Positions 9,561-58,740 of a stretch of DNA of 64,000 nucleotides are shown here, piece after piece (within the stretch, counting starts at the first letter, position 1; each line of letters opens with the position of its first letter). Location: the NCBI GenBank assembly GCA_001768235.1, contig MENK01000001.1, positions 82,267-146,266 of the forward strand, read 5' to 3'. The notes under the pieces were generated by a model. The model was not told the origin of the DNA, did no database searches, and saw nothing but the letters and a program-made list of their open reading frames with translations. Both the position numbers and the translations under genes were made by a program. The stretch comes from Bacteroidetes bacterium GWB2_32_14. GTDB lineage: Bacteria; Bacteroidota; Bacteroidia; Bacteroidales; UBA12077.

Positions 9561-9889
9561 TACAAAAGATACATTTTTTCTTTATTTTTCCATCCTGCCT
9601 GGTAATCATTGCTTACAAAAAATATTTTTAATTCAGCCTGATAATCGTGATCGGCAAAGAATATTTTTTTTTTAGCCTGGTAACTTTGTTCAGTAAAAAA
9701 CCACAATCCTTTATTTTCTTTAGCCTGGTAATCGTACTTTACTTTGTAAACTAATAAATCTGCCTGATAGTCATATTGGGTAACAAATACTTTTAAATCA
9801 GCCTGGTAATCGTATGGTACGGAATATATTTTTTGAGAATATAAAATGCCTGGCATAATTAAAAACAAAAAACTGATAACTAGTTTCAT
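9557..9889 (-). CDS. Small secreted repeat protein with six copies of a (Y/H/N)DYQA(D/E/K/G) motif
   Basis: Signal peptide, then a periodic 'YDYQADLKVF' type repeat that is also visible in the DNA as a repeated gcctggtaatc. Function unknown. Confidence 0.6.
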   Translation of the reverse strand: MKLVISFLFLIMPGILYSQKIYSVPYDYQADLKVFVTQYDYQADLLVYKVKYDYQAKENKGLWFFTEQSYQAKKKIFFADHDYQAELKIFFVSNDYQAGWKNKEKMYLLY

Positions 9890-14236: not shown

Positions 14237-14809
14237 TTGGAATCATTAAATAACGAGTTAATAATTGAAGGTATTCGTTCACAGAATCCTTATATACTCA
14301 ATCAAATATATACAAATTATTTCCCCGAAATCCGAAAATTTATTATTGATAATAATGGGACAATTCAGGATGCAAAAGATATTTTCCAGGAAGCAATAAT
14401 TATTATCTACAGGAAATTAAAGGTTGAGAACATTGTTATTACAAAATCGTTTAACTTATATCTGATAGGTGTTTGCAGGTATTTATGGTATCGCCAGGTT
14501 GCTTTTGTTAAAAACGAATCGGAACAACTGAATCATTTTGCGGAATATGAACGGTTGCCTGAATTTGAAATTGACGAAGTTGAAAAGAATGATAAGTACA
14601 AACTGTACCAGTTTCATTTTAAACAGTTGGGTATTGACTGCCAGAAAATTTTAGAAATGTTTTTAAATAATGTGCCAATAAAGGAGATAGCCAGGAAAAT
14701 GGGCAATACTTCTGAAAATTATATAAAAAGTCGAAAATACAAGTGTAAAGAACAATTGGTGAATAATATTAAAAACGATCCACGGTTTGCAAAGTATGAA
14801 AAGAAATAA
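14237..14809 (+). CDS. Second, divergent sigma-70/ECF-like sigma factor
   Basis: Region-2-like 'DAKDIFQEAIIIIYRKL', 'YLIGVCRYLWYRQ' and a region-4-like HTH 'PIKEIARKMGNTSENYIKSRKYKCKEQL'. TTG start. Confidence 0.7.
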   Translation: MESLNNELIIEGIRSQNPYILNQIYTNYFPEIRKFIIDNNGTIQDAKDIFQEAIIIIYRKLKVENIVITKSFNLYLIGVCRYLWYRQVAFVKNESEQLNHFAEYERLPEFEIDEVEKNDKYKLYQFHFKQLGIDCQKILEMFLNNVPIKEIARKMGNTSENYIKSRKYKCKEQLVNNIKNDPRFAKYEKK

Positions 14810-15537: not shown

Positions 15538-18357
15538 TTATTCTACAGGTTCAGGATAGTCATCCTTTTTTATTCTTGCCGAACGGTTTAACTTTTTTAC
15601 AATCAGAGTTACCAAAATTGCACCAAAAAGTACCCCGAACACGATGTAAATATACATGGCTGTATAGAGTGCATCGTTGTTCCCAATAACAACGTATCCC
15701 GACCAGAAATAGGGGTGAGCGTGTAATTGATCGGCATTCTGAAGAAACTCAATTTTTGCTTGTTGCAACGATTTTGATTTTGAAAATCCTTTTTTCAAAT
15801 CCTTGTAAAAAACAGTCATCAGTTTTACTCCCGAATTATCTTCGACCGACCATAAAGTCATTATTAACGATGGGCAACCTGCATATATGAATCCACGTGC
15901 TAAGCTCATAACTCCCTCGCCCTTTTGAAGGATTCCGGAACCGCTGTTGCACGAACTCAATACAGCCATCCTGCTTTTTAATTGCAAATTATATACTTCG
16001 TAGGTGTTTAAAAATCCGTCTTCGGTAGTATCGCTTGTTTGCGAAAAAGCCATTTTCGAATACATTGGGCTTTCATCGTTAAGTATGGTGTGCATTGCAA
16101 GGTGAAGAACATCAAATTCAGAGGCCTGTTGTTTAAATGTTTTTTCACTTGCATTTTCGTCTAAGAACAAGTTGCCCCCGATTAGTTTTGAAACGGTTTT
16201 TGCCTCTTCTTTTATTCCTTTTAACGGGTACAGTTTCTCCCTGTACTGTTGTCGTGTTAATATGACTCCCGGTTTCTGATTTTCCTGGTTATCGTATTTG
16301 GGTGCAAATGCAATAAGTTTTTTGGGAGCAATCTTCAGGTTATGTTCATTATCGAAAAGAATGCTTGCCGAATAGGTATAACTAATCGGGTTTTCAAACA
16401 AAAGATAATGCAATTTATTATAACTGATAGTGTTATAATTGCCCTCGTGGCAAAGTAAGGTTTCAAACGGGAGATAAGCCAGCTTTCCATCAGGGATAAT
16501 TATCAGGTGTTTTCCATTAATATAACCTGATACGGGAAGTATTAACTGTTTGTACAAATAGGATGATGATTTAATAAACCGGTTAAAATCTTCAAGATTA
16601 TGCTCCGAAAAGTTATTATCGGTTAAGCTGTTTATTTGCATTTCGAGATTTTCATCAAATCCGGGTTCTTTCTTTACACAAGTAAGCGAATAATCTGTTT
16701 TAGTTATTAAAAATATATAGACATTATCAGTACTTAAACAATATTCTATCACAGCATCTTTTTTCTTGATTCTTTCCTGTATATCTTTTATTTCAAACGA
16801 ATTATTCGAGAACTTTAACCTGAAATAATCAGGGTATTCCTTTTCAATCCTGGCAATAAGTTCGGCATGTTTTTCTTTTAATGTGAATATTTCTTTATTC
16901 CATGCAACAATAAACGTTTCATCAGGTTCTGCTTTTTTCCCCTCTTCATAAATCAGCTCTTCGAAAGTCCAGATACTTTTTTTCAATGAATTTTCGGTGT
17001 TCCGTATTTCCAGGGGTACATTTCCGGTTATCAATGCAGCATTGTTTTGTATTGCTTCGGAAAGTACGGCCGACTTTCCCGATTCAGAAAAACGAAATGC
17101 TTTTTCAAGATATTCTTTATTTCTTGTTGCTTCATATATCTTATAACTTGTTTCGAGTGTATGAATATATGTTTCGTGTTCGTTCTCGGCTAAGAAAAGC
17201 TTGCTCTGCTCACTCAAAAATCCGGAGCGGATTTCCCTGATAACATCTAATGCAAGTTCGCTGGCAGCTAGGCTGGCAGCCAGTGAATTGATGTTTGTTT
17301 TATCCTGTTCCCAGGTAAACTCTAAAGCAATGGATTTGTTTTTTAAGCTTCTTAATAACTGTGTTTTCGAAGAAACGGTACCGAGTTCAGGATTTGAACT
17401 ATAACCGGAGTCATTAAACTCCCTGGAGAGTGAGATTAATGATTTTTGAAAATAACTCAACGACTTTTGATATTCCCCGGTTTTTAAATAATACTCCCCG
17501 ATTTTAGAATATGCTCTTGCTGTTTCGGGATTCTTAATCCCTAAAATTTGTTTGTAAATCGATAATGCTTTTTCAAGGTTTTTTAACGATTCAGAGAGTT
17601 CGTTTTTGGAGTTTTGTAAAAACAGCCCATAGTTTAATTGATGTTGCGCATACCAGATGTTGTTTGTACCAAAATTTTTATGGATATTTTCGAGTGCTTT
17701 TAAATAATAAAATTCAGCTTTATCAGTGTTTCCTTCTTTTTCATACGAAAGGGCAAGGTTCTCGTATGTAGAATAAATAGTTTTATCTTCCTGTTTTAAT
17801 TTCAGACTATTTAAAAAACAAAGAATTGCCTTTTTGTTCTGATTAGTGTTTTTATATAAAATACCAAGATTATTATAAATTGATGCAATCAGCAACTTGT
17901 TTTTCATAGAGTCTGTATTTAGAATATTCAGTGATTCAGTATGATACAATTCTGCTTTTTCATAATCCTGTTGTCTTTCAAAAATTGTTGCCTTGTTTGC
18001 ATATACATATACAAGGCCTGGTGAATTGTGGCTTGATTTGTAAACTTGTTCGGCCTTGTTGTAACTCTGGATTGCTTCATCAAACCTGCCGTTCAATTTT
18101 TTTAGTATTCCAAAACTGATATAGGCCGATGCTAAATATTTTGTGTTGTTATTTTTTTCGAATATTTCAATAGATTTCCCGATATAGTAATAGGCACTAT
18201 CCAGGTTGCCCAGCTTACCGTATTCAATTCCTTTGGTTAAACTGAGAATCCCGTTTTCTAAAGTGTCAATACCAGACTGATTCTTGTAATTTGCTGAATT
18301 GCAGGCATTAATCAGGGTATGAGTTAGTATATAGATTATTAAAACGGATTTTTTCAT
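15538..18357 (-). CDS. Exported TPR-repeat CHAT-domain (caspase-like protease) protein with a C-terminal TM anchor
   Basis: Lipoprotein-like signal ('LINAC'), about 10 TPR-like repeats, and a CHAT catalytic-type region ('VLHLAMHT', 'MAVLSSCNSGSG', 'GFIYAGCPSLIMTLW'). Terminal hydrophobic helix followed by a basic tail. Confidence 0.85.
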   Translation of the reverse strand: MKKSVLIIYILTHTLINACNSANYKNQSGIDTLENGILSLTKGIEYGKLGNLDSAYYYIGKSIEIFEKNNNTKYLASAYISFGILKKLNGRFDEAIQSYNKAEQVYKSSHNSPGLVYVYANKATIFERQQDYEKAELYHTESLNILNTDSMKNKLLIASIYNNLGILYKNTNQNKKAILCFLNSLKLKQEDKTIYSTYENLALSYEKEGNTDKAEFYYLKALENIHKNFGTNNIWYAQHQLNYGLFLQNSKNELSESLKNLEKALSIYKQILGIKNPETARAYSKIGEYYLKTGEYQKSLSYFQKSLISLSREFNDSGYSSNPELGTVSSKTQLLRSLKNKSIALEFTWEQDKTNINSLAASLAASELALDVIREIRSGFLSEQSKLFLAENEHETYIHTLETSYKIYEATRNKEYLEKAFRFSESGKSAVLSEAIQNNAALITGNVPLEIRNTENSLKKSIWTFEELIYEEGKKAEPDETFIVAWNKEIFTLKEKHAELIARIEKEYPDYFRLKFSNNSFEIKDIQERIKKKDAVIEYCLSTDNVYIFLITKTDYSLTCVKKEPGFDENLEMQINSLTDNNFSEHNLEDFNRFIKSSSYLYKQLILPVSGYINGKHLIIIPDGKLAYLPFETLLCHEGNYNTISYNKLHYLLFENPISYTYSASILFDNEHNLKIAPKKLIAFAPKYDNQENQKPGVILTRQQYREKLYPLKGIKEEAKTVSKLIGGNLFLDENASEKTFKQQASEFDVLHLAMHTILNDESPMYSKMAFSQTSDTTEDGFLNTYEVYNLQLKSRMAVLSSCNSGSGILQKGEGVMSLARGFIYAGCPSLIMTLWSVEDNSGVKLMTVFYKDLKKGFSKSKSLQQAKIEFLQNADQLHAHPYFWSGYVVIGNNDALYTAMYIYIVFGVLFGAILVTLIVKKLNRSARIKKDDYPEPVE

Positions 18358-18577
18358 TTAATTCGTCACAAATTTTTTACAATATACTCTAAAATTGATT
18401 AAAAGTTAGTTTTTTTTGCATTTGTAAAACTCAGTAAATCAAAAGTATAAAAATTATTTTAAAAAAAGTTTAAAAATAATTTCAAAAACCGGGTTACCTT
18501 TTTTAAAAAAACTGCACATATAAGTGGAGAGAGAAACATAATTTTTATAAATAATAAAATCTAAAAAAACCAAAACC

Positions 18578-18736
18578 ATGAAAAGTTTAATTCACTTATT
18601 CGGGCAGGATGAACCCAAAAAATCATTCAAACAATTTGCACAACTCGGTACTAACGATATGCTGCTTGTAAAAGGCGGCGATGGTGATCCAATTGATGAT
18701 GATCTTTGGCCCCCGGTTCCACCGATTCAGAAATAA
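18578..18736 (+). CDS. Double-glycine-leader peptide 1, Cys-free acidic/Pro-rich core (52 aa); absent from the ORF track
   Basis: MKSLIHLFGQDEPKKSFKQFAQLGTNDMLLVKGG|DGDPIDDDLWPPVPPIQK. Hydrophobic residues sit at -4, -7, -12 and -15 relative to GG, as in C39-processed leaders. Confidence 0.7.
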   Translation: MKSLIHLFGQDEPKKSFKQFAQLGTNDMLLVKGGDGDPIDDDLWPPVPPIQK

Positions 18737-18767
18737 AGTTATTGATTTTATTAAAAGAACCAAAGCC

Positions 18768-18932
18768 ATGAAAAGTTTAATTCACTTATTCGGGCAGGAT
18801 GAACCCCAAAAATCATTTAAACAATTTGCACAACTTAGTACTAACGATATGTTGCTTGTAAAAGGCGGCGATGGAGAGCCACAAGACGATCTTTGGCCTC
18901 CAATTCCTCCCTTACCACCAACAACAAAATAA
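18768..18932 (+). CDS. Double-glycine-leader peptide 2, tandem paralog (54 aa)
   Basis: MKSLIHLFGQDEPQKSFKQFAQLSTNDMLLVKGG|DGEPQDDLWPPIPPLPPTTK. The leader DNA is almost identical to peptide 1. The ORF-track start at 18681 is read-through of the spacer. Confidence 0.7.
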   Translation: MKSLIHLFGQDEPQKSFKQFAQLSTNDMLLVKGGDGEPQDDLWPPIPPLPPTTK

Positions 18933-18994: not shown

Positions 18995-19747
18995 ATGAAT
19001 AGTTACAACCCTATTGTAGATAAATATATTTACGGGGAACTCGATACCGACGAAATGGTAGCTTTTGAGCAGTTGCTGGCAAACGATTCCCGTGTAAAAA
19101 AGGAGTATCATTTATACAACGATATAAACCATGCCATACTCGAGAAGGATGTTATGGTACTCCGCGGTACTCTCGATGGAATATATAATGAAATTGCCGA
19201 GCCAAAAGAAAAATATATTTCATCGGTTTTCTCTAAACGCAAGATGTATTACGCTGCCGCTTCGCTTGCCATGTTAATGGCTACAGGTGGTATTGTTAAC
19301 CAGTTAGCAAAAAACGACATGGGTAACGAAGCAATTTACAGCAAATATTTTACTCCTTACGAAGTAGCTGTTACTTATCGTTCAGGGAATGAAGAGGCTG
19401 ACAAACTGCTTTTATACGCGCTCCAGAAATACGAAGATGAGGAATATGATAAAGCTGTTGTTCTTTTCGAACAGGTACTCGAAAAACGAAATAATGATAT
19501 GGCTGCTAATTTATATTCAGGTATTTCTCTTATGGAAACTGAAAAATACCAAAAAGCAACACATTCGTTTCAGGCAATTATTGCACAAAATGATAACTTA
19601 TTTACTGAACAGGCAAAATGGTACCTGGCAATGTGTTACATTAAAACAAACAGTGTTTCTAAAGCAGAGAATATTTTAAATGATTTAATTGTTAAAAACA
19701 GCTATTATAAAGATATAGCCAAAAAAGTACTTAAAGAACTGGATTAA
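18995..19747 (+). CDS. Anti-sigma-like single-pass membrane TPR protein (paralog B of 14796..15533), with no adjacent sigma gene
   Basis: Same layout and alignable motifs as paralog A ('DKYIYGELDTDEMVAFEQLL'; TM 'YYAAASLAMLMATGGIV'; 'WYLAMCYIKTNSVSKAE'). Confidence 0.65.
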   Translation: MNSYNPIVDKYIYGELDTDEMVAFEQLLANDSRVKKEYHLYNDINHAILEKDVMVLRGTLDGIYNEIAEPKEKYISSVFSKRKMYYAAASLAMLMATGGIVNQLAKNDMGNEAIYSKYFTPYEVAVTYRSGNEEADKLLLYALQKYEDEEYDKAVVLFEQVLEKRNNDMAANLYSGISLMETEKYQKATHSFQAIIAQNDNLFTEQAKWYLAMCYIKTNSVSKAENILNDLIVKNSYYKDIAKKVLKELD

Positions 19748-19765: not shown

Positions 19766-20488
19766 ATGAAACCACAATCTGGCACCATTAGTCGGGATGA
19801 CATTAAAGAAAGTAATGTTTCCGATAGCACCAGGAGTAGTTTTCTTTCGCATATATCGCATGGTATAAGAACGCCTTTAAACTCCATCATGGGTTTTTCC
19901 AATTTATTATTAGACAGGCAGCTTGTTGATGGTAAGCAAATTGAATATGCAAGGCGCATAGTTTCCAGCAGTAATGTATTGTTAAATTTTGTAGAGAACC
20001 TGATCGATTTGTCGCAATTCGATTCAAATAAATACAAGGTTACCCAACAGCAAGTTGATTTAAATTCATTGCTATGGAAAATAGCCGAAGATTTTATTAT
20101 TCAGAAAATTGATAAGGATTATTCTGAAATTGAACTTTCGGTGAATATCCATTCAGGAATCGAAGATTTTTTAATAACTACCGATTATGTATTGCTGAAA
20201 AAATCGTTAAACAGGCTTGTTGAGTTAGTTGCTGCTATTTATAAAACCGGGAAAATCGAGTTGGGATATTGCATTGAAAACAACCATGTACTTAAAATAT
20301 ATGTTCGTGAAAATAGCGACGAATATTTTAAACAGCAGGGCAACCTGGAGTTTAGGGATGATAACGGGGAAGATATGTTTAATGATTTCAATTTCGAAGT
20401 GCTTGTTCGTTCGATAGATCTTATTGGCGGGCGGGTTTGTACTGACTCAATTATGAATGAATATTATATCGAATTGCCAATAAATTGA
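19766..20488 (+). CDS. Soluble histidine-kinase-like protein: intact HisKA H-box, degenerate ATPase domain
   Basis: 'FLSHISHGIRTPLNSIMGFSNLL' is a good H-box. I could find no N-box (NxxxNAxK), DxGxG or GxGxGL in the C-terminal half. No TM helix. Confidence 0.65.
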   Translation: MKPQSGTISRDDIKESNVSDSTRSSFLSHISHGIRTPLNSIMGFSNLLLDRQLVDGKQIEYARRIVSSSNVLLNFVENLIDLSQFDSNKYKVTQQQVDLNSLLWKIAEDFIIQKIDKDYSEIELSVNIHSGIEDFLITTDYVLLKKSLNRLVELVAAIYKTGKIELGYCIENNHVLKIYVRENSDEYFKQQGNLEFRDDNGEDMFNDFNFEVLVRSIDLIGGRVCTDSIMNEYYIELPIN

Positions 20489-20547: not shown

Positions 20548-20901
20548 ATGACAACATTTAATATATACTTACCAACAAAAAACGGGAAAATAGGAGTAGA
20601 GCTTAAACATATTCTTTACTTCGAATCCCTGGGCGACACCAATTTTATGGTGTTAAACAATGATGAAAAAATCGAGTTGTTAATGGCCGTTGATGAAATT
20701 GAGCAACTGCTGTGTTACCGTGGATTTTTCAGGTTTACACAAAACTACCTTGTAAACCTTAAAGCTGTTCAGCTTATATTCCCTGGCGATGCGTCGAAAG
20801 TGGTTCTCGAAAATGGTAAAGAAATTTTTGCACCGCAAAGCCGCCGTGAAGAACTTTTTAGAGAACTCGAGAAAGTGTACCAGGTTCACGCGACTATATA
20901 A
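20548..20901 (+). CDS. Stand-alone LytTR DNA-binding domain protein (no receiver domain)
   Basis: 117 aa. LytTR-like 'ILYFESLGDTNFMV...FFRFTQNYLVNLKAV'. The usual H-[RK]-S triad is replaced by T-Q-N. Confidence 0.7.
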   Translation: MTTFNIYLPTKNGKIGVELKHILYFESLGDTNFMVLNNDEKIELLMAVDEIEQLLCYRGFFRFTQNYLVNLKAVQLIFPGDASKVVLENGKEIFAPQSRREELFRELEKVYQVHATI

Positions 20902-21006: not shown

Positions 21007-21366
21007 ATGATTGATTTAAATGGAAAAATATACATCCAATCCGAAGATGAAAAAATAATCCAAATTGAAGAAATAAAAAATATTGTTTATTTAGAAGCCG
21101 ACAATAGAAAAACGAAAGTTTATTGCTTCAACGGGAATCAGTATTTAATTAATAAATGCCTGAGTTACATAGAAGAAAGGATTACAAATAAAAATTTCTT
21201 TAAGATCCATAAATCATTTATCATTAATGTTGATTATTTAAAAAGTGTTAACTACAAAGGTGAAAAAAATGTAGTTCTTGAAAATGATATTAAAATTCAA
21301 ATAGCTTGTCGAAAATATCCTGAATTCAAGAGATTTTTGAAAGAGAAATTTTCGTTTTTTCAGTAA
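21007..21366 (+). CDS. Stand-alone LytTR DNA-binding domain protein (no receiver domain)
   Basis: 119 aa. Canonical 'IVYLEADNRKTKVY...FFKIHKSFIINVDYLKSV'. Confidence 0.8.
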   Translation: MIDLNGKIYIQSEDEKIIQIEEIKNIVYLEADNRKTKVYCFNGNQYLINKCLSYIEERITNKNFFKIHKSFIINVDYLKSVNYKGEKNVVLENDIKIQIACRKYPEFKRFLKEKFSFFQ

Positions 21367-23303: not shown

Positions 23304-23401
23304 GGGGAAGGTTTATAAAGAAATTCTATTGCGAAGAATAAACCGAAACTTGACGGTTTAAAAAAGTTCAAGATTTTCTTTAACTAAAAATTCTTAATAA
23401 A
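23304..23401 (+). promoter_or_regulatory. Cassette upstream element, copy 1 (conserved promoter/operator-like repeat)
   Basis: Contains GCGAAGAATAAACCGAAACTTGACGG (23331-23356) and TTCAAG (23367-23372). TTGACGG lies 52 nt before the ATG. Confidence 0.55.
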
Positions 23402-23572
23402 ATGAAAGATTTAAAAAATTTAAAAGGTGCTAAAGTTCTTGGCAAAACAGAACAAAAAGCTATTAAGGGCGGAGTAATAGTTATTTGTGAAGGATGTCCG
23501 CCAATATCCGATTGTTGTGTAAATAACATTTGTGGCAAAATAGGTATAGGTGGAAAATGTTATGCCATTTAG
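23402..23572 (+). CDS. GG-leader Cys-rich bacteriocin-like precursor A (56 aa, 6 Cys in the core); absent from the ORF track
   Basis: MKDLKNLKGAKVLGKTEQKAIKGG|VIVICEGCPPISDCCVNNICGKIGIGGKCYAI. Confidence 0.75.
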   Translation: MKDLKNLKGAKVLGKTEQKAIKGGVIVICEGCPPISDCCVNNICGKIGIGGKCYAI

Positions 23573-23588
23573 TTTTATTTTATTCAGG

Positions 23589-23631
23589 TTAACTAGGAAT
23601 TATCTGGATTTTTCAGATAACTTCTAGTTAA
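23589..23631 (+). terminator. Hairpin after precursor A
   Basis: TTAACTAGGAATTATCTG / CAGATAACTTCTAGTTAA, 16 of 18 positions complementary. Confidence 0.5.
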
Positions 23632-23809
23632 TTATTTAGGTGGAATCCACAGTTTGCCTGACTTTAAAAAAGCAGTTGAAAATCAGGGTTTTATGCACGT
23701 GACATGCAGTTGTAACAGCTAAATGTTATTTTGAAGTGCTATGTAATATTTGCGATTTTTTTATTCTGCATACAAGTCAGAAATTGAATGCATACCACGA
23801 AATAATTTA

Positions 23810-23908
23810 CTCAAGGAAGATTTAAAAAGAAATTCATTCGCGAAGAATAAACCGAAACTTGACGGTTTTAAAATGCTCAAGATATTTTAACCTAAAATTT
23901 CTAATAAA
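23810..23908 (+). promoter_or_regulatory. Cassette upstream element, copy 2
   Basis: Differs from copy 3 at about five positions in 99 nt by my count. TTGACGG at 23859-23865 (50 nt before the ATG); CTCAAG at 23876-23881. Confidence 0.6.
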
Positions 23909-24055
23909 ATGAAAGATTTAAAGAAAATGAAAGGTGTTAAGATTCTTAGCAAAAAGGAGCAAAAAGCTATTAAAGGCGGATATGCTTGCAGAGAACCTGA
24001 AATGTGGTGCCCTCCCGGATCGATTTGTGTTGATGGGCTTTGTCGTCCAGTATAA
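23909..24055 (+). CDS. GG-leader Cys-rich bacteriocin-like precursor B (48 aa, 4 Cys)
   Basis: MKDLKKMKGVKILSKKEQKAIKGG|YACREPEMWCPPGSICVDGLCRPV (C-x6-C-x5-C-x4-C). Confidence 0.75.
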   Translation: MKDLKKMKGVKILSKKEQKAIKGGYACREPEMWCPPGSICVDGLCRPV

Positions 24056-24081
24056 TAGCAGATACGATTATTAACTAATTA

Positions 24082-24115
24082 AGAAGTTGTCTGAAAAAAT
24101 ATTCTGGCAACTTCT
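24082..24115 (+). terminator. Hairpin after precursor B
   Basis: AGAAGTTG ... CAACTTCT stem. Confidence 0.4.
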
Positions 24116-24198
24116 CTTAAAAATCATTACCTCCCCCTTGATATTTCCCCGGGGGAATAAAAAAGTTTAACATCAGTAATTGAATAAAAACTATTTTT

Positions 24199-24297
24199 CT
24201 AAAGGAAGATTTAAAAAGAAATTCTCTCGCGAAGAATAAACCGAAACTTGACGGTTTTAAAATGCTCAAGATATTTTAACCTAAAATTCTTAATAAA
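24199..24297 (+). promoter_or_regulatory. Cassette upstream element, copy 3
   Basis: GCGAAGAATAAACCGAAACTTGACGG at 24229-24254 and CTCAAG at 24265-24270. TTGACGG lies 50 nt before the ATG. Confidence 0.6.
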
Positions 24298-24453
24298 ATG
24301 AAAGATTTAAAAAAATTAAAAGGTGCTAAAATTCTTAGCAAAAAGGAGCAAATCTCAATTAAAGGTGGAAAAATTTATTGTGGTGATGGAAAACCTTGTC
24401 CTGTTGGTACAATATGTAATGGGACATGGTGTGAACCATATATTGAGGCATAG
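24298..24453 (+). CDS. GG-leader Cys-rich bacteriocin-like precursor C (51 aa, 4 Cys)
   Basis: MKDLKKLKGAKILSKKEQISIKGG|KIYCGDGKPCPVGTICNGTWCEPYIEA (C-x5-C-x5-C-x4-C). Confidence 0.75.
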   Translation: MKDLKKLKGAKILSKKEQISIKGGKIYCGDGKPCPVGTICNGTWCEPYIEA

Positions 24454-24471
24454 TATCAAATTTTAAATATC

Positions 24472-24503
24472 GAGAGAAAATCTTTGGTTTTCTCTCATTT
24501 TTA
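24472..24503 (+). terminator. Hairpin plus T-tract after precursor C
   Basis: GAGAGAAAA / TTTTCTCTC stem followed by ATTTTT. The sequence is related to the hairpin after precursor D. Confidence 0.6.
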
Positions 24504-24604
24504 ATTAAATAAGTTTAGATCGCTTTAAGTTAGAAATAATTAAGAAAGTTGTAAAATACTTACAATAAGTTGTGTTTAATTTTTAACTCAATGATAGCAT
24601 ATAT

Positions 24605-25540
24605 ATGGATATAATTAATAGCATCATAGATTTTGTTAAGGATAACTGGACTACAATATTTAGTGGTATTGGTACAACTATTTTAATTGGAATTCTCGGA
24701 TATATTGGTAAGCGTATGAAAAAAGGAAAAAAAATATCCCAAGAAGAAAAAAAAGTTATAAATCAAAGTGTGAATACTGGAGATAACTCAAAAGTAATTC
24801 AAAGTGCTGAAAACATCATAATTGACAATTCAGATGTTAAAATAAATAATGATTCAAAATCAACAGCCACAGAGCAAACAATTATTGTGCAAGCTGGTAG
24901 AGATGCTATATTGAATGTTAAACAAAGTCCGCCTGACATAAAATTAGTACGAGTAACAGTTGAAGATGATGAAACACAAAGAGGGCTGAAGCAAAAGCTG
25001 AATGTAATAATGAAAAATAATGGAGATAAAAGTGTATTTCTTTTAAGTGGTCATCTAGAGGTTATTGGTTGTGAAGACATTGTAAATCCAAATCATTTTG
25101 GAATGCATTATAAACTTAGTTTTGCTGATTGGAATTATGATGTTGATATTAATAGTGATAACCCTAGCTTTAAGGGACAACATATAATTGAACCAGATGA
25201 AGTAATTAACTTTAATGTCATAGTCGGTAGAAATGAAGGAGGCCTTAATTTATCAGTCTATAAATGTTTATTAAAGTTTAAATTTGATGAACACAAGGAT
25301 TTAGAATGTGGTCCATTTTTCTTGCTTATTTCTGGACCAACTGTTTGGGATGGAGGTTTTCAAGCCTGTGGACCAACTCCTGAACAATGGGGCAGAGCGC
25401 AAGTAGATAACATCAAACGTTTAGACAGTATAGGATATGATTATCGTCATCAAATTCATCCAGATTCAAGAAAATACCTTGAAGAAATAGACCCACATAT
25501 CTTTGAAAAACAAAAAACTAAACACAACACGCGGTCATAA
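24605..25540 (+). CDS. Hypothetical N-terminally membrane-anchored protein (311 aa) interrupting the cassette array
   Basis: Long clean ORF. TM helix 'IFSGIGTTILIGILGYIG', then a low-complexity Asn/Ser/Asp linker and a ~200-aa globular domain. I do not recognise any family motif. Confidence 0.55.
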   Translation: MDIINSIIDFVKDNWTTIFSGIGTTILIGILGYIGKRMKKGKKISQEEKKVINQSVNTGDNSKVIQSAENIIIDNSDVKINNDSKSTATEQTIIVQAGRDAILNVKQSPPDIKLVRVTVEDDETQRGLKQKLNVIMKNNGDKSVFLLSGHLEVIGCEDIVNPNHFGMHYKLSFADWNYDVDINSDNPSFKGQHIIEPDEVINFNVIVGRNEGGLNLSVYKCLLKFKFDEHKDLECGPFFLLISGPTVWDGGFQACGPTPEQWGRAQVDNIKRLDSIGYDYRHQIHPDSRKYLEEIDPHIFEKQKTKHNTRS

Positions 25541-25660
25541 AACATGCCGGTTTCAGTCGGTTTTCGAGCGTTTCGTCCCGCCTCGTAGGTTTGTAACGGG
25601 GGGTACAGACGCAGCCCCGCAATCCGGCACGTTTCATACCGCCAACGTTAGAGTATAGCA
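25541..25660. other. GC-rich, non-coding, structure-prone island of unknown nature
   Basis: Composition jumps sharply relative to the AT-rich surroundings. Complementary segments: ATGCCGG (25544-25550) / CCGGCA (25624-29), and CGGGG...CCCCG around 25597-25619. No ORF. Confidence 0.3.
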
Positions 25661-25697
25661 TGACGGGAAATTAAACTTTACAAAAATGACTGAAGCT

Positions 25698-25750
25698 TTG
25701 ACGGTCAACTAAATGCTCAAGGCAAATTATTAATTAAATAGTAACTTATT
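25698..25750 (+). promoter_or_regulatory. Cassette upstream element, truncated copy 4 (core only)
   Basis: TTGACGG at 25698-25704 (53 nt before the ATG) and CTCAAG at 25716-25721. The distal GCGAAGAATAAACCGAAAC part is absent. Confidence 0.5.
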
Positions 25751-25924
25751 ATGAAAGAATTAAAAAATTTAAAAGGTGCTAAAGTTCTTAGCAAAAAAGA
25801 GCAAATCTCAATTAAAGGCGGATTAGAAATTTGTGATATTTTTGGGCATGATTGCCATGAAGGTTATATTTGCAAATTAGTGAATTCAACCACGGGATGG
25901 TGCATTCCTGTAATCGAAGATTAA
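25751..25924 (+). CDS. GG-leader Cys-rich bacteriocin-like precursor D (57 aa, 4 Cys)
   Basis: MKELKNLKGAKVLSKKEQISIKGG|LEICDIFGHDCHEGYICKLVNSTTGWCIPVIED. Confidence 0.75.
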   Translation: MKELKNLKGAKVLSKKEQISIKGGLEICDIFGHDCHEGYICKLVNSTTGWCIPVIED

Positions 25925-25934
25925 TGTCTTGAAT

Positions 25935-25970
25935 AATGAGAGGGAACTTTTTGGTTTTCTCTCATTATTT
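25935..25970 (+). terminator. Hairpin after precursor D
   Basis: AATGAGAG / CTCTCATT stem. Shares 'tttggttttctctcatt' with the hairpin after precursor C. Confidence 0.55.
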
Positions 25971-26175
25971 AAAATTTAGAATTTAGAATAACTCATTTCT
26001 GCCCAGGATTTTGCCATGGGGCTAATCATTAAATAAAATAGTTTTAAATACAACAGTATCAATACAGAAGCAAATCGATTATAAAAAATCTTTGTAAATA
26101 AATGCAATTTATTTTCTGAATTATTAAAATTAATCCTAAGTCTGTTCAAGAGTTTTTAATATCTTTAAACCAAAA

Positions 26176-28392
26176 ATGCCTTTCCCCTTTTACCAACAGT
26201 TAGATGCCATGGATTGCGGCCCTTCGTGCCTGCGCATGATTGCGAAACATTATGGCAAGTCGTTTTCCTTACAAACCTTGCGCGATAAAAGCTATATTAC
26301 CCGCGAGGGTGTTTCTATGCTGGGTATTAGCGATGCAGCAGAAGCAATTGGATTTCGCAGCATGGGTGTTCGAATTACTTTCGAGCAGTTACTAAACGAA
26401 GCACCAATGCCTTGTATAGCACATTGGAAGCAAAATCACTTTGTGGTGGTTTATAAAATCAAACAAATTCTCCCGTCCCCCTTTAGAAAAGGAGGAGTAT
26501 TTGTACATGTGGCCGATCCGGCACGGGGATTGATAAAATTTACCAAGGAAGAGTTTATGTCGGGTTGGGCTAACACGAAAGAAGCGGGCGAAGATAAAGG
26601 TTTGTGCCTATTGCTGGAAACAACTCCCGACTTTTACAAGTCCGATAATGAAAAATTAAACAAATCGGGTTTCAAATTTTTGTTTTCGTATTTACGACCG
26701 TATAAAAAACTGATTATTCAGCTGGTATTAGGTTTATTGCTGGGTAGTTTATTGCAACTTATTTTTCCATTTTTAACCCAGAGCATTGTCGATAAAGGTA
26801 TCAATAACCAGGATTTGAGCTTTGTAACACTCATTATTATTGCACAACTGGTACTTATTTTTTCGCGAACTATAGTTGAATTTATTCGGAGCTGGATTTT
26901 ATTGCACCTGGGTACACGAATCAATATTTCGTTAATATCCGATTTTCTGATTAAATTAATGAAGTTACCGGTTTCCTTTTTCGATACTAAAATGATTGGT
27001 GACCTTATTCAACGAATTGGCGACCATAAACGTATCGAAAACTTTTTAACATCATCTACATTAAATATCCTGTTCTCATTTGTTAACCTGATCATATTTG
27101 GCATTGTTCTTCTTACATACAGTGTAAACATATTTCTTATTTTCCTTATAGGAAGTACATTATACACGCTTTGGATTTACCTGTTCATGAAAAAACGACG
27201 CGATTTGGATAATCGGAAGTTTGCCCAACTTTCGAGTAATCAAAGCAATGTAATTCAGTTGATTACCGGAATGCAGGAAATAAAACTGAACAACTGTGAA
27301 AAGCAAAAACGATGGGAGTGGGAGAGTATCCAGGCCAAGTTGTTCAAAGTAAATATGGATAGCTTATCATTGAGTCAGTACCAGCAGGCTGGCGGGGTTT
27401 TTATTAACGAAATAAAAAACATTGCAATCACGTTTATTGCAGCCAAATCAGTTATCGACGGACAAATGACTCTGGGTATGATGCTGGCAGTGCAATACAT
27501 CATTGGCCAGTTAAACAGCCCGATTAATCAAATGATTGGATTCTTGCAGGCTACCCAGGATGCGAAAATAAGCCTGGAACGCTTAGGTGAGATTCATCAA
27601 CGCGACAATGAAGAGTCGGACGAAACGCCTAAAATAAGTATTCTGCCTGAACACCGTGATTTAAATATTGATTTAATATCATTCCAGTACGAGGGGCCTC
27701 ATTCGCCTTTTGTGCTCGAAAATGTTGAATTAAATATCCCCGAGAAAAAAATTACAGCTGTAGTAGGTACCAGCGGTAGTGGTAAAACCACACTAATCAA
27801 GCTTTTACTTGGATTTTACGAGCCACAGAAAGGCAAAATAAAACTGGGTGATATTTACCTGAACAATATCAGTAATCGTATGTGGCGCGATAAGTGTGGT
27901 GTTGTTATGCAGGATGGATTTATTTTCTCCGATTCAATAGCAAATAATATTTCTGTTTCAGACGAGTTTCCCGATCGCGAAAAATTACTAAATGCCGTAA
28001 AGGTGGCCAATATACAGGATTTTATTGAATCTCTGCCTTTGGGCTATAATACAAAAATCGGACAGAATGGTGTTGGATTGAGCCAGGGGCAGAAACAACG
28101 AATACTCATTGCCCGTGCGGTGTATAAAAACCCTGAATTTATTTTCCTTGATGAGGCTACCAATGCACTCGACGCAAATAATGAACGTGTTATCATGGAA
28201 AACCTCGATCAGTTTTTTAAAGGGAAAACAGTTGTAGTTGTTGCACACCGATTGAGTACTGTAAAAAATGCCGACCAGATTGTAGTTTTGGAGCAAGGGA
28301 AAATAGTAGAAAGAGGTACCCATGCAGAGTTAACCAGGAAGAAAGGTGCTTATTACGAGTTGGTGAGGAATCAGTTGGAGTTAGGGAATTAA
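26176..28392 (+). CDS. Peptidase-C39-domain ABC transporter (double-glycine leader cleavage and export)
   Basis: N-terminal C39 with a candidate catalytic set (Q in 'YQQLD', C in 'MDCGPSC', H in 'QNHFVVV', D in 'VADPA'). Six-TM ABC membrane domain. Walker A 'GTSGSGKTT', signature 'LSQGQKQR', Walker B 'IFLDEATNALD'. Confidence 0.9.
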   Translation: MPFPFYQQLDAMDCGPSCLRMIAKHYGKSFSLQTLRDKSYITREGVSMLGISDAAEAIGFRSMGVRITFEQLLNEAPMPCIAHWKQNHFVVVYKIKQILPSPFRKGGVFVHVADPARGLIKFTKEEFMSGWANTKEAGEDKGLCLLLETTPDFYKSDNEKLNKSGFKFLFSYLRPYKKLIIQLVLGLLLGSLLQLIFPFLTQSIVDKGINNQDLSFVTLIIIAQLVLIFSRTIVEFIRSWILLHLGTRINISLISDFLIKLMKLPVSFFDTKMIGDLIQRIGDHKRIENFLTSSTLNILFSFVNLIIFGIVLLTYSVNIFLIFLIGSTLYTLWIYLFMKKRRDLDNRKFAQLSSNQSNVIQLITGMQEIKLNNCEKQKRWEWESIQAKLFKVNMDSLSLSQYQQAGGVFINEIKNIAITFIAAKSVIDGQMTLGMMLAVQYIIGQLNSPINQMIGFLQATQDAKISLERLGEIHQRDNEESDETPKISILPEHRDLNIDLISFQYEGPHSPFVLENVELNIPEKKITAVVGTSGSGKTTLIKLLLGFYEPQKGKIKLGDIYLNNISNRMWRDKCGVVMQDGFIFSDSIANNISVSDEFPDREKLLNAVKVANIQDFIESLPLGYNTKIGQNGVGLSQGQKQRILIARAVYKNPEFIFLDEATNALDANNERVIMENLDQFFKGKTVVVVAHRLSTVKNADQIVVLEQGKIVERGTHAELTRKKGAYYELVRNQLELGN

Positions 28393-28490: not shown

Positions 28491-28862
28491 ATGGAGTTTG
28501 GGTTTAAACAGTTAAAAGTTTACCAAAAGGCATATCAGCTCGCAAAAGAGATATTTGAAATCAGCAAATCATTTCCTATAGAAGAGAAGTATTCTTTAAC
28601 AGATCAGATAAGAAGATCATCAAGAGCTGTTTGTGCTAATATTGCGGAAGCATATCGAAAAAGACGATATCCTAAACACTTTACATGTAAAATTACTGAC
28701 TCAGACGCTGAAGCTAGTGAGACTGTTGTTTGGCTTAATTTTGCAATGGATTCTAATTACATTTCTAAAGAAATTCAAATGCGATTAGAAAATGAATATG
28801 AAGAAGTTGAAAGAATGTTAGGTTCAATGGCCGATCATCCTGAAAAATTTTTACCAAAATAA
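28491..28862 (+). CDS. Four-helix-bundle protein ('23S rRNA intervening-sequence protein' family)
   Basis: 'FKQLKVYQKAYQLAKEIFEISKSFP..EKYSLTDQIRRSSRAVCANIAEAY' is the typical family signature. Wedged between the exporter and HlyD genes. Confidence 0.8.
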   Translation: MEFGFKQLKVYQKAYQLAKEIFEISKSFPIEEKYSLTDQIRRSSRAVCANIAEAYRKRRYPKHFTCKITDSDAEASETVVWLNFAMDSNYISKEIQMRLENEYEEVERMLGSMADHPEKFLPK

Positions 28863-28910: not shown

Positions 28911-30206
28911 ATGGAAGAACAAAATAAAATTGAACTTCGCTCGAATGATGTACAAGAAATTCTCAGCCGTCCACCAAAATGGATTGTGCGATGGGGTATT
29001 ACAATAATTCTGATTGTTGTTGTTATCTTGATTGCAGGGAGTTGGTTTTTTAAATATCCCGACATTATTACTGCAAAAATAGTATTGACTACAGAAAACC
29101 CACCATCTCCCGTAGTTGCTAAAACATCGGGCAAAATTCAGAACTTGTTTGTTACCGATAAGCAGGAAGTAAAAAAGAATCAGGTATTGGCAGTTATCGA
29201 GAATCCCGCAAATTTCAATGATATAAGTATAATCATTGAAAAATTAAACAACTTTAATTCAGATTCTTATTCCAATGAAATTTTTTCAGGGAGTTATAAT
29301 CTTGGCACTATTCAATCCTATTATGCTGATTTTATCAGAAATCTTGATGAATACCAAAAACTTGTTCAGATGGATTATCACCAGAAAAAAATCAATCTCT
29401 TGAAAAAAGAAATTATACAATACACAAAATACCTCGCAAATTTAAAAGTGCAAAACAACCTGCAAAAAAGAGAATACGAATTAATAGTGAACCAATTCTA
29501 TCGTGATTCAACTTTACACGATCAGCAGTTAATATCTGAGGCTGAATTTGAGAAATCGAAGTCATCCTTATTGTCAAAACAGTTTAGTCTTGAACAATCA
29601 AACATTGCACTTACCAATACCGAAATTCAGGTTCAAAATATTGAGCAGAGCATAGCAGAACTTGAGCTGCAGGAAGAAAAACAATTGTCGGATAAAAAGC
29701 TGCTAATCAAACAGTCGTGTGAAAATTTAATTGCAGCTATCGATTCCTGGAAATACCAGTATGTTTTAATTGCATCAACCGATGGTAAAGTTACATTTAA
29801 CAAGTTCTGGAATGAGAATCAATCGGTAAAATCAGGAGAAACAGTACTTACAATAATTCCGGATAATGAGGGTGAAATAATTGGTAAGGTTCAATTGTCG
29901 TTTCAGGGTGCCGGGAAAGTAAAAGAAGGACAACAGGTAAATATTCGATTCGATAATTATCCATATATGGAATTTGGAATGGTTAAAGGAGTGGTAAAAT
30001 CAATATCGCAAGTTCCCGATAATGATTATTATACTGCCGAAATACAGTTGCCCGGCGGATTAATTACATTTTACAATGAAAAACTCGATTTTAAGCAGGA
30101 AATGCAAGGTACAGCAGAGATTGTAACTGAAGATTTCCGGTTATTGGAACGTATTGTAAGGCCATTGCGGTACGTTTTAAATAAAAATACTAAGTTTGGG
30201 GGTTAA
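28911..30206 (+). CDS. HlyD-family membrane fusion/accessory protein for the peptide exporter
   Basis: N-terminal TM helix, long coiled-coil middle and a C-terminal beta-barrel-like region, immediately downstream of the C39 ABC transporter. Confidence 0.8.
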   Translation: MEEQNKIELRSNDVQEILSRPPKWIVRWGITIILIVVVILIAGSWFFKYPDIITAKIVLTTENPPSPVVAKTSGKIQNLFVTDKQEVKKNQVLAVIENPANFNDISIIIEKLNNFNSDSYSNEIFSGSYNLGTIQSYYADFIRNLDEYQKLVQMDYHQKKINLLKKEIIQYTKYLANLKVQNNLQKREYELIVNQFYRDSTLHDQQLISEAEFEKSKSSLLSKQFSLEQSNIALTNTEIQVQNIEQSIAELELQEEKQLSDKKLLIKQSCENLIAAIDSWKYQYVLIASTDGKVTFNKFWNENQSVKSGETVLTIIPDNEGEIIGKVQLSFQGAGKVKEGQQVNIRFDNYPYMEFGMVKGVVKSISQVPDNDYYTAEIQLPGGLITFYNEKLDFKQEMQGTAEIVTEDFRLLERIVRPLRYVLNKNTKFGG

Positions 30207-58626: not shown

Positions 58627-58740
58627 AAAAAAGCCGGGCAAGCTACTTACATCGCTCCGCTACAACCGTTTACCCTTGCTTCCTTCCGAACCTGGGGGAG
58701 TTCAACGGGAGCTGGTCGTATAAGACTTACCCGGGGGCAC
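58627..58740 (-). ncRNA. ffs: Small (4.5S-type) signal recognition particle RNA
   Basis: The minus strand reads ...CCCCCAGGUUCGGAAGGAAGCAAGGGUAAACGG..., the conserved domain IV motif with its GGAA tetraloop. The ends pair (CCGGGUAAG / CUUGCCCGG) and a U-tract follows. It forms a GC-rich island in an AT-rich intergenic region. Confidence 0.85.

Follow-up and report, generated by a model that had tools for sequence, protein, structure and literature searches.

The peptide array and its family

We analysed a stretch of 64,000 nucleotides (64 kb) from Bacteroidetes bacterium GWB2_32_14 (contig MENK01000001.1, positions 82,267 to 146,266 of the forward strand), the whole of which is called the window here; L-numbers denote the related loci that were compared with it, and P-numbers denote database peptides. 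Within the window, four short open reading frames (ORFs), cassettes A to D, each encode a leader ending in Gly-Gly (GG leader) followed by a Cys-rich core. A gene for a membrane oxidase lies ahead of this array, and the genes of a peptidase-containing ABC transporter (PCAT) and an HlyD-family protein lie 250 nt downstream of it. We read the four ORFs as precursors of small exported disulfide peptides in a conserved multi-peptide 'bacteriocin island' of environmental Bacteroidota, and we put the probability of this reading at about 0.68. The features on which it is built are as follows.

23402-23572, + strand: cassette A; 56 amino acids (aa), a 24-aa GG leader and a 32-aa core with 6 Cys; its orthologue at L001 9759-9929 retains all 6 Cys
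23909-24055, + strand: cassette B; 48 aa, leader and a 24-aa core with 4 Cys, YACREPEMWCPPGSIC... type; identical to P0002
24298-24453, + strand: cassette C; 51 aa, leader and a 27-aa core with 4 Cys; identical to P0001
25751-25924, + strand: cassette D; 57 aa, leader and a 33-aa core with 4 Cys; identical to P0003
21668..23287, + strand: C39-like/VKOR/thioredoxin (Trx) fusion, candidate leader-guided disulfide oxidase; 539 aa; Pfam VKOR, Peptidase_C39, Thioredoxin_4
26176..28392, + strand: PCAT with an intact C39 domain; 738 aa; PF03412 E=1.5e-31, ABC_membrane, ABC_tran
28911..30206, + strand: HlyD-family membrane-fusion protein; PF13437 E=2.6e-12; syntenic

An initial annotation, made from the letters of the stretch, had reported four plus-strand ORFs starting at 23402, 23909, 24298 and 25751, and all four are present. 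The common leader that it described, MK(D/E)LKxxKGxK(V/I)L(S/G)K(K/T)EQxxIKGG, aligns without gaps over 24 residues in all four and ends in KGG; its closeness to LSxxELxxIxGG was confirmed at five of six consensus positions (L-12, S-11, E-8, I-4 and GG), with Q rather than L at -7. The Cys patterns were likewise as reported, with six in A (C-x2-C-x5-CC-x4-C-x8-C) and four in each of B, C and D (C-x5/6-C-x5-C-x4/9-C), and so were the string CP(P/V)G(S/T)IC common to B and C, the leader variants EQKAIKGG (A and B) and EQISIKGG (C and D), and the identical string tttggttttctctcatt within the 3' hairpins of C and D. The statement that the cores are unrelated did not survive: B, C and D, together with about 25 relatives, align on one C-x5-6-C-P-x-G-x-x-C-x3-9-G-x-C scaffold.

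A leader hidden Markov model (HMM) built from database relatives matched exactly these four ORFs in the window (48-55 bits), and a peptide profile search of 1.84 billion proteins returned 966 representative clusters at E<=1e-3. Among 93 unique peptides, 49 have four Cys, 38 have six, two have eight and three have an odd number (90 of 93 even), and Cys accounts for 14% of the core residues and 0% of the leader residues; four or six Cys were also found in 131 of 138 further representatives. No functional name is attached to any family peptide that we encountered, the few NCBI entries being called hypothetical protein. Cassettes B, C and D are called solely by the JGI, ENA and Logan gene callers and have no NCBI entry, and the neighbouring oxidase has one; their description as unannotated is plausible in the sense that the gene-caller entries, which do exist, are nameless. 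Identical products of B, C and D occur on 8-13 contigs, and the array is found unchanged on a 596-kb groundwater metagenome scaffold. A 72-aa database variant of A (P0006, 98% identical) reads through the stop codon (...KCYAIQFYFIQVNQELSGFFR), which reflects either a strain polymorphism or a sequencing error.

Nucleotide alignment of the four cassettes bore out the observation that leader and upstream DNA are conserved while core DNA is not. Identity between paralogues was 0.65-0.92 over 110 nt upstream, 0.82-0.93 over the leader (72 nt) and 0.47-0.61 in the core, the last being at chance level (mean 0.58 for random 90-nt pairs from the window). The further step to hypervariable, diversifying toxin cassettes was overstated, since every core type is kept between species. 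In the pooled orthologue pairs (A vs L001, B vs L003, C vs L001 and D vs L003), pN/pS was 0.21/0.70 for cores and 0.11/0.50 for leaders, corresponding to dN/dS of about 0.12 and about 0.15, respectively. A pN far below pS between orthologues indicates purifying selection and argues against diversifying cores. The diversity between genomes lies in which paralogous cassettes are carried and in their order, not in fast evolution of the cores. Stop codons or frameshifts in orthologous loci had been proposed as grounds for doubt; the compared orthologous cassettes are intact, with the frame and all Cys kept, and one decayed paralogue was seen at L025 366-509. In this copy the leader is truncated, EGK stands in place of GG, and a D-like core has an odd number of Cys, so cassettes evidently can decay. 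Within a genome, leaders and 5' regions are so alike in nucleotide sequence that they would offer ample homology for recombination between cassettes, and it is plausible that cassettes are shuffled by recombination between the roughly 150 nt of conserved 5' element and leader of neighbouring copies.

The predicted precursors consist, at modest confidence, of a leader helix and a core forming a beta-hairpin or a three-stranded sheet, with three strands in A (mean predicted local distance difference test score, pLDDT, 60). In profile searches against PDB sequences no match fell below E=0.07 (best E=0.072), and the top non-significant sequence and fold matches were all cystine-dense mini-proteins (animal knottin toxins, a cyclotide, granulin and Dkk). 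A resemblance to knottins, which have six Cys in C-C-CC-C-C order, I-IV, II-V, III-VI connectivity and a knotted three-stranded fold, is seen in the Cys order of core A and many relatives and in the low-confidence three-stranded sheet; unlike knottins, they have a first loop of only 2 residues, and no sequence or fold match was significant. We describe the peptides as cystine-dense mini-proteins and claim no more specific fold.

Several results speak against this picture of the peptides. No curated GG-leader model matched the leader of the window peptides at its cut-off; the best scores were 14.3 bits for NF047798 (cut-off 23.5), 12.5 for TIGR04149 (25) and 13.8 for PF14406 (25), and an NCBIfam search of C and D gave no match whatsoever. 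The leader shape MKxLK...LSKxEQKxIxGG is nevertheless shared with NF047798 (leader_Chryseo), NF047792 (CCPGW family) and TIGR04149/PF14406, all as weak matches below their cut-offs. Structure prediction was weak for A-type and B-type precursors (mean pLDDT 60 and 68), and Foldseek against the PDB gave 0 matches for A and, for B, only matches to cystine-dense mini-proteins at E>2. Overall, we regard export, processing at GG and disulfide bonding of the peptides as very probable.

About a thousand clusters of apparently secreted, cystine-dense Bacteroidota mini-proteins that carry no functional name can be recognised by the leader, the 5' element described below and the neighbouring oxidase, and the family is a source of stable peptide scaffolds and possibly of narrow-spectrum antibacterials.

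The oxidase gene ahead of the array

Three modules are joined in the oxidase. Pfam VKOR matched at E=7e-17, Peptidase_C39 at 22.2 bits (cut-off 22), and Thioredoxin_4 matched as well. Its redox Cys are the VKOR loop pair C194/C203, the VKOR CxxC C274/C277 and the CxxC of the thioredoxin fold C391/C394, and all of them are invariant in 119 homologues. The VKOR part (residues 192-320) aligns to the Synechococcus VKOR-Trx structure (PDB 4NV6), which has the same loop Cys pair, CxxC and Trx CxxC; unlike it, the window protein has three modules in one chain, an extra membrane segment and a reversed bias of Lys and Arg (K/R). PF03412 matches residues 2-125. No Cys is conserved in residues 1-130, and 91 of the 119 homologues are Cys-free there; this C39-like domain therefore cannot be a cysteine protease. 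BLASTP detected no similarity between it and the C39 domain of the PCAT, and its assignment rests on the Pfam profile. The inactive C39-like domain of HlyB-type exporters binds substrate, and the N-terminus of the oxidase is alike in matching PF03412 without the catalytic Cys. By this analogy, the obvious use of the domain would be to bind the GG leader.

A2X13_13665 of Bacteroidetes bacterium GWC2_33_15 is 100% identical to the oxidase, whose family has more than 600 members with generic annotation only; homologues occur in cultivable strains of Lutibacter, Ancylomarina and Labilibaculum. None of the papers searched mentions the combination of C39-like, VKOR and Trx domains. A scan of one genome per species with the oxidase alignment as query yielded 13 loci, from Bacteroidales metagenome-assembled genomes, Lutibacter, Salinivirgaceae and Chitinophagaceae, whereas the genome scan with the oxidase as a single protein sequence gave no match. 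A metagenome scan with a degenerate leader DNA pattern found two loci, one of them a duplicate. GG-leader Cys-rich ORFs directly follow the oxidase in 11 of the 11 loci with downstream DNA (L009 and L015 have little or none), and likewise in the oxidase-bearing metagenome loci. In L001, a second oxidase copy was observed at 17121-18755.

We then consider the orientation of the oxidase in the membrane. Six hydrophobic segments were found, one more than in Synechococcus VKOR-Trx, and six is also the modal count among the homologues. An even number of spans would place the C39-like domain on one side of the membrane together with the Cys loop, CxxC and Trx domain. The mean K/R count is 13.7 on the flanks of that side and 0.6 on the other side, and the K/R-rich loops of Synechococcus VKOR (VKRWRW, GHRW..K) correspond to loops that are K/R-free in the window oxidase. 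Under the positive-inside rule, K/R-rich flanks are cytoplasmic, and the bias therefore suggests that the redox side is cytoplasmic. Judged from this predicted topology, we somewhat favour the formation of disulfides at the cytoplasmic face before export.

The alternative is that the VKOR-Trx part faces the periplasm as usual, either because the first segment does not span the membrane or because the C39-like domain is translocated, and that disulfides form after export, as proposed for bacteroidetocins. We hold this to be possible, at well short of even odds. To our knowledge, all characterised bacterial VKOR-Trx proteins (the 4NV6 family) face the periplasm, and a cytoplasm-facing VKOR would have to work against a reducing cytoplasm; moreover, the topology above comes from our own hydropathy and charge count, a crude analysis in which exactly six segments were obtained for 63-81 of the 119 homologues, depending on the threshold. 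These points tell against a cytoplasmic redox side. The periplasmic orientation has in turn to accommodate the lack of a signal peptide in the N-terminal 135 residues, a first hydrophobic segment that is the strongest peak in the window protein (2.53), and the K/R bias, which is the reverse of that in 4NV6. In addition, the leader exists only until the PCAT cleaves it, so a leader-binding domain would be useful only in the cytoplasm, and Gram-negative PCAT/HlyD systems (CvaAB-TolC) are thought to secrete without a periplasmic intermediate. Oxidation before export would have parallels: PCAT-type exporters routinely export already cross-linked lanthipeptides, and disulfides can be formed in the cytoplasm of E. 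coli by VKOR and DsbB that were engineered into an inverted orientation. If the cytoplasmic orientation is true, the oxidase would represent natural quinone-driven, leader-directed disulfide formation before export; it would account for the disulfides of peptides that bypass the periplasm, and it could be a useful tool for producing disulfide-rich peptides in bacteria.

The exporter island and the role of the peptides

The array and its oxidase are part of a syntenic island, of which the remaining genes are listed here.

14237..14809, + strand: ECF-sigma-like (extracytoplasmic function) gene at the left end of the syntenic island; 52-55% identical to PF04542 Sigma70_r2 genes in the same position in L001, L003, L004 and L008
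14787..15533, + strand: TPR protein (anti-sigma-like partner); Pfam TPR_19; position kept in relatives
15538..18357, - strand: CHAT-TPR protein; PF12770 CHAT E=1.3e-56; 44-48% identical orthologues in the same place
18578..18736, + strand: Cys-free GG-leader peptide 1; leader ends ...LVKGG; core DGDPIDDDLWPPVPPIQK; candidate signalling peptide
18768..18932, + strand: Cys-free GG-leader peptide 2; tandem paralogue, 84% identical to peptide 1
18995..19747, + strand: TPR protein; Pfam TPR_19 E=2.3e-9; syntenic
19766..20488, + strand: HisKA-domain protein (histidine-kinase-like); PF00512 E=3.9e-15; syntenic
20548..20901, + strand: stand-alone LytTR DNA-binding protein 1; PF04397 E=1.2e-10
21007..21366, + strand: stand-alone LytTR DNA-binding protein 2; PF04397 E=1.8e-18
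28491..28862, + strand: PF05635 (23S rRNA IVP / bAvd-like) four-helix-bundle protein; Pfam; between PCAT and HlyD

In the relatives the island runs in the order ECF sigma, TPR, CHAT, small GG peptide, TPR, HisKA, two to three LytTR genes and oxidase, followed by 3-11 small peptide genes, PCAT, PF05635, HlyD and an acyl-ACP thioesterase; the ECF-sigma-like gene of the window itself has no Pfam match at E<=1e-4. The claim of an array of GG-leader, Cys-rich exported-peptide cassettes was thus upheld: the array lies beside a C39 PCAT, an HlyD protein and a disulfide enzyme, an arrangement that recurs in every related locus examined. The PCAT carries the DCGPSC and NHFVVV motifs in its translation and matches TIGR01193 at E=8.5e-132, below the cut-off of that model. 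The leader, a competent C39 PCAT and HlyD, that is, the components known for PCAT-exported GG-leader peptides (class II bacteriocins and microcins), are accordingly all present here. Leaders of this type are typically N-terminal stretches of about 15-30 aa with GG (or GA/GS) as their last residues.

Some of the relatives' islands have LanC, lanthipeptide dehydratase, or radical-SAM and Rce1-like genes added after the array. Genes of this kind (LanC-like, lanthipeptide dehydratase and radical SAM) were observed in L001, L003, L025 and L026, along with peptides that have weak Lant_leader_dom matches. The window island has no LanC, LanM, dehydratase or radical SAM gene; the modifying enzymes typical of radical-SAM- and LanC-type ribosomally synthesised and post-translationally modified peptides (RiPPs) are thus absent from it and stand beside other peptides in the islands of relatives. 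One exporter island seems to serve several peptide classes. The longest run noted was in L026, with 11 consecutive peptide genes.

The two Cys-free GG peptides have short, acidic, Pro-rich cores (DGDPxDDDLWPPxPP...), in which D-x-WPP, like the KGG of the leader, is invariant among aligned relatives; in the window as well as in L001, L003 and L004, the TPR/HisKA/LytTR genes follow them directly. They are candidate quorum-sensing or signalling peptides for the island. The LytTR proteins (117-119 aa) have no receiver domain and the HisKA protein (240 aa) has no HATPase match, so that the module of regulators departs from the standard two-component type.

The closest characterised peptides are the bacteroidetocins, proposed as class IIf bacteriocins (Coyne et al. 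2019, PMC6671954; Matano et al. 2021, PMC8546649). Their loci, comprising a GG peptide, a thiol oxidoreductase together with an ABC transporter/peptidase, produce active toxins; full activity requires the oxidoreductase, and the loci lack an immunity gene (PMC6671954). The locus also includes a gene for a protein with five transmembrane (TM) segments, and the mature peptide has at least two and usually four Cys and kills through BamA. The window peptides are alike in being GG-leader peptides of Bacteroidota, with 6, 4, 4 and 4 Cys, in having no immunity gene, and in that several classes of the phylum are represented. They depart from the bacteroidetocins in both length criteria, the leader being 24 aa and the cores 24-33 aa against 15-16 aa and 42-53 aa (PMC6671954, PMC8546649). 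There are further differences: the islands hold 3-11 different peptides per locus instead of one, HlyD, LytTR/HisKA regulators and pheromone-like peptides are added, and the hosts are environmental (groundwater, marine). An oxidoreductase and an ABC/peptidase gene are present, and no gene for a five-TM protein was found between 18995 and 30206. Because of the lengths, the missing five-TM gene and the added HlyD, regulators and multiple peptides, which set the array apart from the published descriptions, we do not file it as a bacteroidetocin.

Multi-peptide class II loci of streptococci and lactobacilli (blp, pln) have a GG-leader pheromone, a histidine kinase and a LytTR regulator. The island shares with them several GG-leader peptides served by one PCAT and an accessory protein, a separate GG-leader peptide of signalling type by kinase-like and LytTR genes, and strain-variable cassettes. 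It differs in its Gram-negative host, in stand-alone LytTR proteins without receivers, in the lack of immunity genes, in cystine-dense cores with a dedicated oxidase, and in the element before each cassette. By analogy, the array appears to work like the bacteroidetocin loci and these LytTR-regulated Gram-positive loci, and we file it with the bacteroidetocin-like and class II peptides, from which it differs in detail; the covarying 5' element and the apparently inverted oxidase are the surprising parts.

An antibacterial role for the peptides, drawn from the likeness to bacteroidetocins, is in our judgement only slightly better than an even bet. The bacteriocin-like interpretation of the initial annotation accordingly stands for genuine genes of exported GG-leader peptides, fails for diversification, and is an analogy where antibacterial action is concerned. 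Pfam domain searches found no immunity gene and no outer-membrane component in the window, which weighs against a bacteriocin system. The peptides might instead be exported and disulfide-bonded without being antibacterial, acting as pheromones, protease inhibitors, or toxins against grazers or other eukaryotes (knottin-like). This would suit the absence of an immunity gene in or near the array, the C-C-CC-C-C order of core A with its best, non-significant, matches to knottin toxins, cyclotide, granulin and Dkk, and the purifying selection on orthologous cores; the locus also contains regulators, and PCAT systems export pheromones too. We nevertheless consider it unlikely: the role of pheromone already has a fitting candidate in the Cys-free GG pair, a set of 3-11 different peptides in an island is typical of bacteriocin cocktails, and the bacteroidetocins are antibacterial without immunity genes (PMC6671954).

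Two observations concern individual exporter genes. GC content is 0.40-0.46 in the PCAT gene and 0.25-0.33 in the region around it, and the PCAT protein is 87-89% identical to relatives, whereas the neighbouring oxidase and HlyD are only 50-66% identical; this reflects either very strong constraint or a recent exchange of the exporter. The PF05635 gene between PCAT and HlyD is kept in the window, L004, L008 and L022 and is absent in L007; that its product binds the RNA element described below would be pure speculation.

The element in front of the cassettes

The conserved upstream DNA reported for the array is, judged by covariation, a structured element. An alignment of the 120 nt upstream of the ORFs from many loci gave the motif AAACCG-AAA-CCTTGA-CGGTTT-TAAAATGY-TCAAGG, ending 15-30 nt before the ATG, which consists of two interleaved inverted repeats. 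For a reciprocal test we built two covariance models (CM), R1 with helix 2 only and R2 with helix 1 only, and both recovered the four copies in the window.

23336..23384, + strand: 5' element of cassette A; 49 nt; CM R1 44.3 bits, E=3e-8; CM R2 42.7 bits
23845..23892, + strand: 5' element of cassette B; CM R1 54.5 bits, E=5.5e-11; R2 52.9 bits
24234..24281, + strand: 5' element of cassette C; CM R1 54.5 bits; R2 52.9 bits
25683..25732, + strand: 5' element of cassette D; CM R1 42.9 bits, E=8e-8; R2 43.8 bits; no palindrome in front

CM R1 gave 56 matches in 376 kb, all on the + (sense) strand, including one per cassette in the window, and 55 of them lie directly upstream of a GG-peptide ORF, the exception being upstream of the HlyD gene of L012. 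Helix 2 was paired in 92.6% of cells of the R1 alignment, compared with 78.8% in column shuffles (reached in none of 500) and with 46.6% at most when the partners were slid, and double-sided changes occurred in 10 of 12 pairs. Helix 1, which is absent from R1, was paired in 88.5% of cells with 5 of 6 pairs compensatory. CM R2 recovered the same sites, with helix 2 paired in 95.5% against 86.8% when shuffled (0 of 1000), and RNAalifold independently gave helix 1. The compensatory changes were found between taxa and also within single genomes (L001, L010); helix 1 occurs as ACCG/CGGT, ACTG/CAGT, GACAC/GTGTC, GCTG/CAGC, GCCG/CGGC and GGTA/TACC, and helix 2 as CCTTGA/TCAAGG, CTGTGA/TCACAG, CCCGA/TCGGG and GCCTGG/CCGGGC. 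G.U cells outnumber A.C cells (34 vs 6), which places the structure on the sense strand. Together these data suggest, with good probability, that the element is a sense-strand structured RNA.

The helices of 5-7 bp and the loops of 3 (AAA), 0-1 and about 8 nt (A-rich) are compatible with coaxial stacking in an H-type pseudoknot. Preference for a pseudoknot RNA is tempered by three points: alternate hairpins, or a switch between them, are also compatible with the sequence; about one-fifth of the cassettes in relatives have no recognisable copy of the element; and in cassettes with their own promoter its transcription is presumed. Rfam 15 had no match at the gathering score at the four element positions, and at E<=10 only weak, wrong-strand or eukaryotic-family matches appeared; one of them, a minus-strand match to OTKONC (19 bits vs a gathering score of 141), was judged to be chance. 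The element resembles the preQ1-I, SAM-II/V and guanidine-III riboswitches and the ribosomal-protein operator pseudoknots in its size (about 40-50 nt), its interleaved helices and its position just upstream of a start codon. It differs from these small pseudoknot RNAs in being repeated before the cassettes of one island and in having no Rfam match. Bacteroidota initiate translation without Shine-Dalgarno pairing. Because of this mode of initiation and the fixed distance from the AUG, the most likely role of the element would be ribosome loading, protection of the mRNA 5' end or factor binding.

Further copies were noted outside the Cys-rich family. In the Lutibacter locus L012, the copy at 16733-16781 lies in the 82-nt gap between PCAT and HlyD, and the element is thus not restricted to peptide genes. 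At L004 10444-10491, a copy precedes ORF 10506-10667, which encodes a GG peptide that has one Cys, a hydrophobic core and a leader of another family (MKNKKRSDYSLLFDNEKAMSKDELNLTKGG...) and which adjoins radical-SAM/SPASM and Rce1-like genes. No pseudoknot-type element was found in front of the Cys-free GG peptides at 18578-18932. Two other interpretations of the upstream motif were dropped: LytTR-type direct repeats, once the interleaved inverted repeats and the covariation were clear, and an integron-like (attC-type) recombination site, since the island has no integrase and the G.U bias points to a sense-strand RNA.

Other inverted repeats also flank the cassettes, namely palindromes upstream and hairpins downstream.

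23323..23339, + strand: palindrome/hairpin ATTCTattgcgAAGAAT, 5' of the element of cassette A
23832..23848, + strand: palindrome ATTCattcgcgAAGAAT, before B
24221..24237, + strand: palindrome ATTCTctcgcgAAGAAT, before C
23587..23633, + strand: 3' hairpin after A; -23.1 kcal/mol, z=-5.3
24082..24115, + strand: 3' hairpin after B; z=-3.3
24472..24496, + strand: terminator-like hairpin with a T tail after C; folding test
25929..25972, + strand: 3' hairpin after D; -23.9 kcal/mol, z=-6.2

All four window cassettes end in a strong hairpin (z -2.9 to -6.2). The ATTCT-N7-AGAAT palindrome, with a TCGCGA-like centre, precedes A, B and C and all Lutibacter cassettes, being near-identical in both, and neither D nor the tightly packed cassettes have it. 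The arms are conserved in sequence and show no covariation, as expected of a protein site, and the palindrome may be an operator or other protein-binding site that marks cassettes with their own promoter.

We also considered whether the upstream motif itself acts as DNA, either as a promoter (for example of the ECF sigma of the island) or as an operator of LytTR or another protein. In B and C a sigma-70-like TTGACG-N16/18-(GATATT/TATTTT) coincides in part with the motif, the island has genes of ECF-sigma-like and LytTR type, and the palindrome that looks like a protein site is adjacent. This explanation is nonetheless improbable. Compensatory substitutions in both helices, even within one genome, are unlike a protein site; other taxa have CTGTGA, CCCGA or GCCTGG in place of the TTGAC-like string, with the pairing kept; and the excess of G.U over A.C is a mark of strand-specific structure. 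Furthermore, a sigma-70-type promoter scan of the region gave 19 matches, not above the shuffled expectation (13.6 +/- 4.0), and no Bacteroidota-type -33/-7 promoter was located by eye. Where cassettes are tightly packed, the motif touches or runs into the ORF before it; in L001 it starts at 9698, inside the last codons of an ORF whose stop ends at 9704, leaving no room for a promoter in between, and it therefore cannot be a stand-alone promoter there. Finally, that the ORFs are untranslated chance frames in repeated intergenic DNA, as their shortness, the lack of Pfam or NCBIfam matches above cut-off and the nameless or hypothetical relatives might suggest, is effectively refuted by the comparative data, that is, by leader HMM matches of 48-55 bits confined to these ORFs in the window, some 966 clusters with the same leader in 1.84 billion proteins, the low pN relative to pS, the Cys parity across the family, and the constant linkage to PCAT and oxidase.

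Taking the sense-strand RNA and the cytoplasmic oxidase together, a working model of the island can be outlined. Each cassette would be a unit of palindrome (A, B and C), 49-nt RNA element 15-30 nt before the AUG, ORF and 3' hairpin. The LytTR/HisKA regulators would turn the island on, possibly by sensing the two Cys-free GG peptides at 18578-18932, and the RNA element would then act post-transcriptionally on each cassette, through translation initiation, mRNA stability or factor binding. The leader would dock on the dead C39-like domain of the membrane oxidase, whose thioredoxin-like CxxC would oxidise the core, with electrons passing to the VKOR loop Cys, the VKOR CxxC and quinone. This oxidation would take place at the cytoplasmic face before export, in the manner of RiPP enzymes that use a leader, after which the PCAT, which has the domains for it, would cut after GG and export the cross-linked core with HlyD. 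Outside the cell, by analogy with the bacteroidetocins, the peptides would most likely act as a cocktail of narrow-spectrum antibacterial toxins. The full combination is put forward tentatively: an inverted VKOR-Trx on a leader-gripping dead C39 domain that oxidises cores before export, together with a new class of small pseudoknot RNA that coordinates translation or stability of the cocktail, stands before cassettes and once before an HlyD gene, and is conserved across Bacteroidales, Flavobacteriales and Chitinophagales. The element is a compact candidate structured RNA with strong covariation, and it would be a valuable case, since translation initiation and post-transcriptional control in Bacteroidota are poorly understood.

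The remaining observations concern other parts of the array and of the window. The 311-aa product of a gene between C and D (24605-25540, + strand) is an orphan with a single membrane segment at its N-terminus; neither Pfam nor NCBIfam gave a match for it, it is absent from 19 related loci (L001-L019), and 5.8 billion proteins include only 9 homologues. A GC-rich stretch of about 120 nt (25541-25665) directly follows this gene. We tested it for RNA structure (z=-0.15) and for repetition (it is single-copy) and rejected both; the orphan gene and the GC-rich stretch look like an insertion into the array. Far from the island, at 58632-58739 on the - strand, the Bacteroidales small signal recognition particle RNA (RF04183, 97 bits) is the only Rfam match of the window at the gathering score, and it fits the taxonomy of the host.

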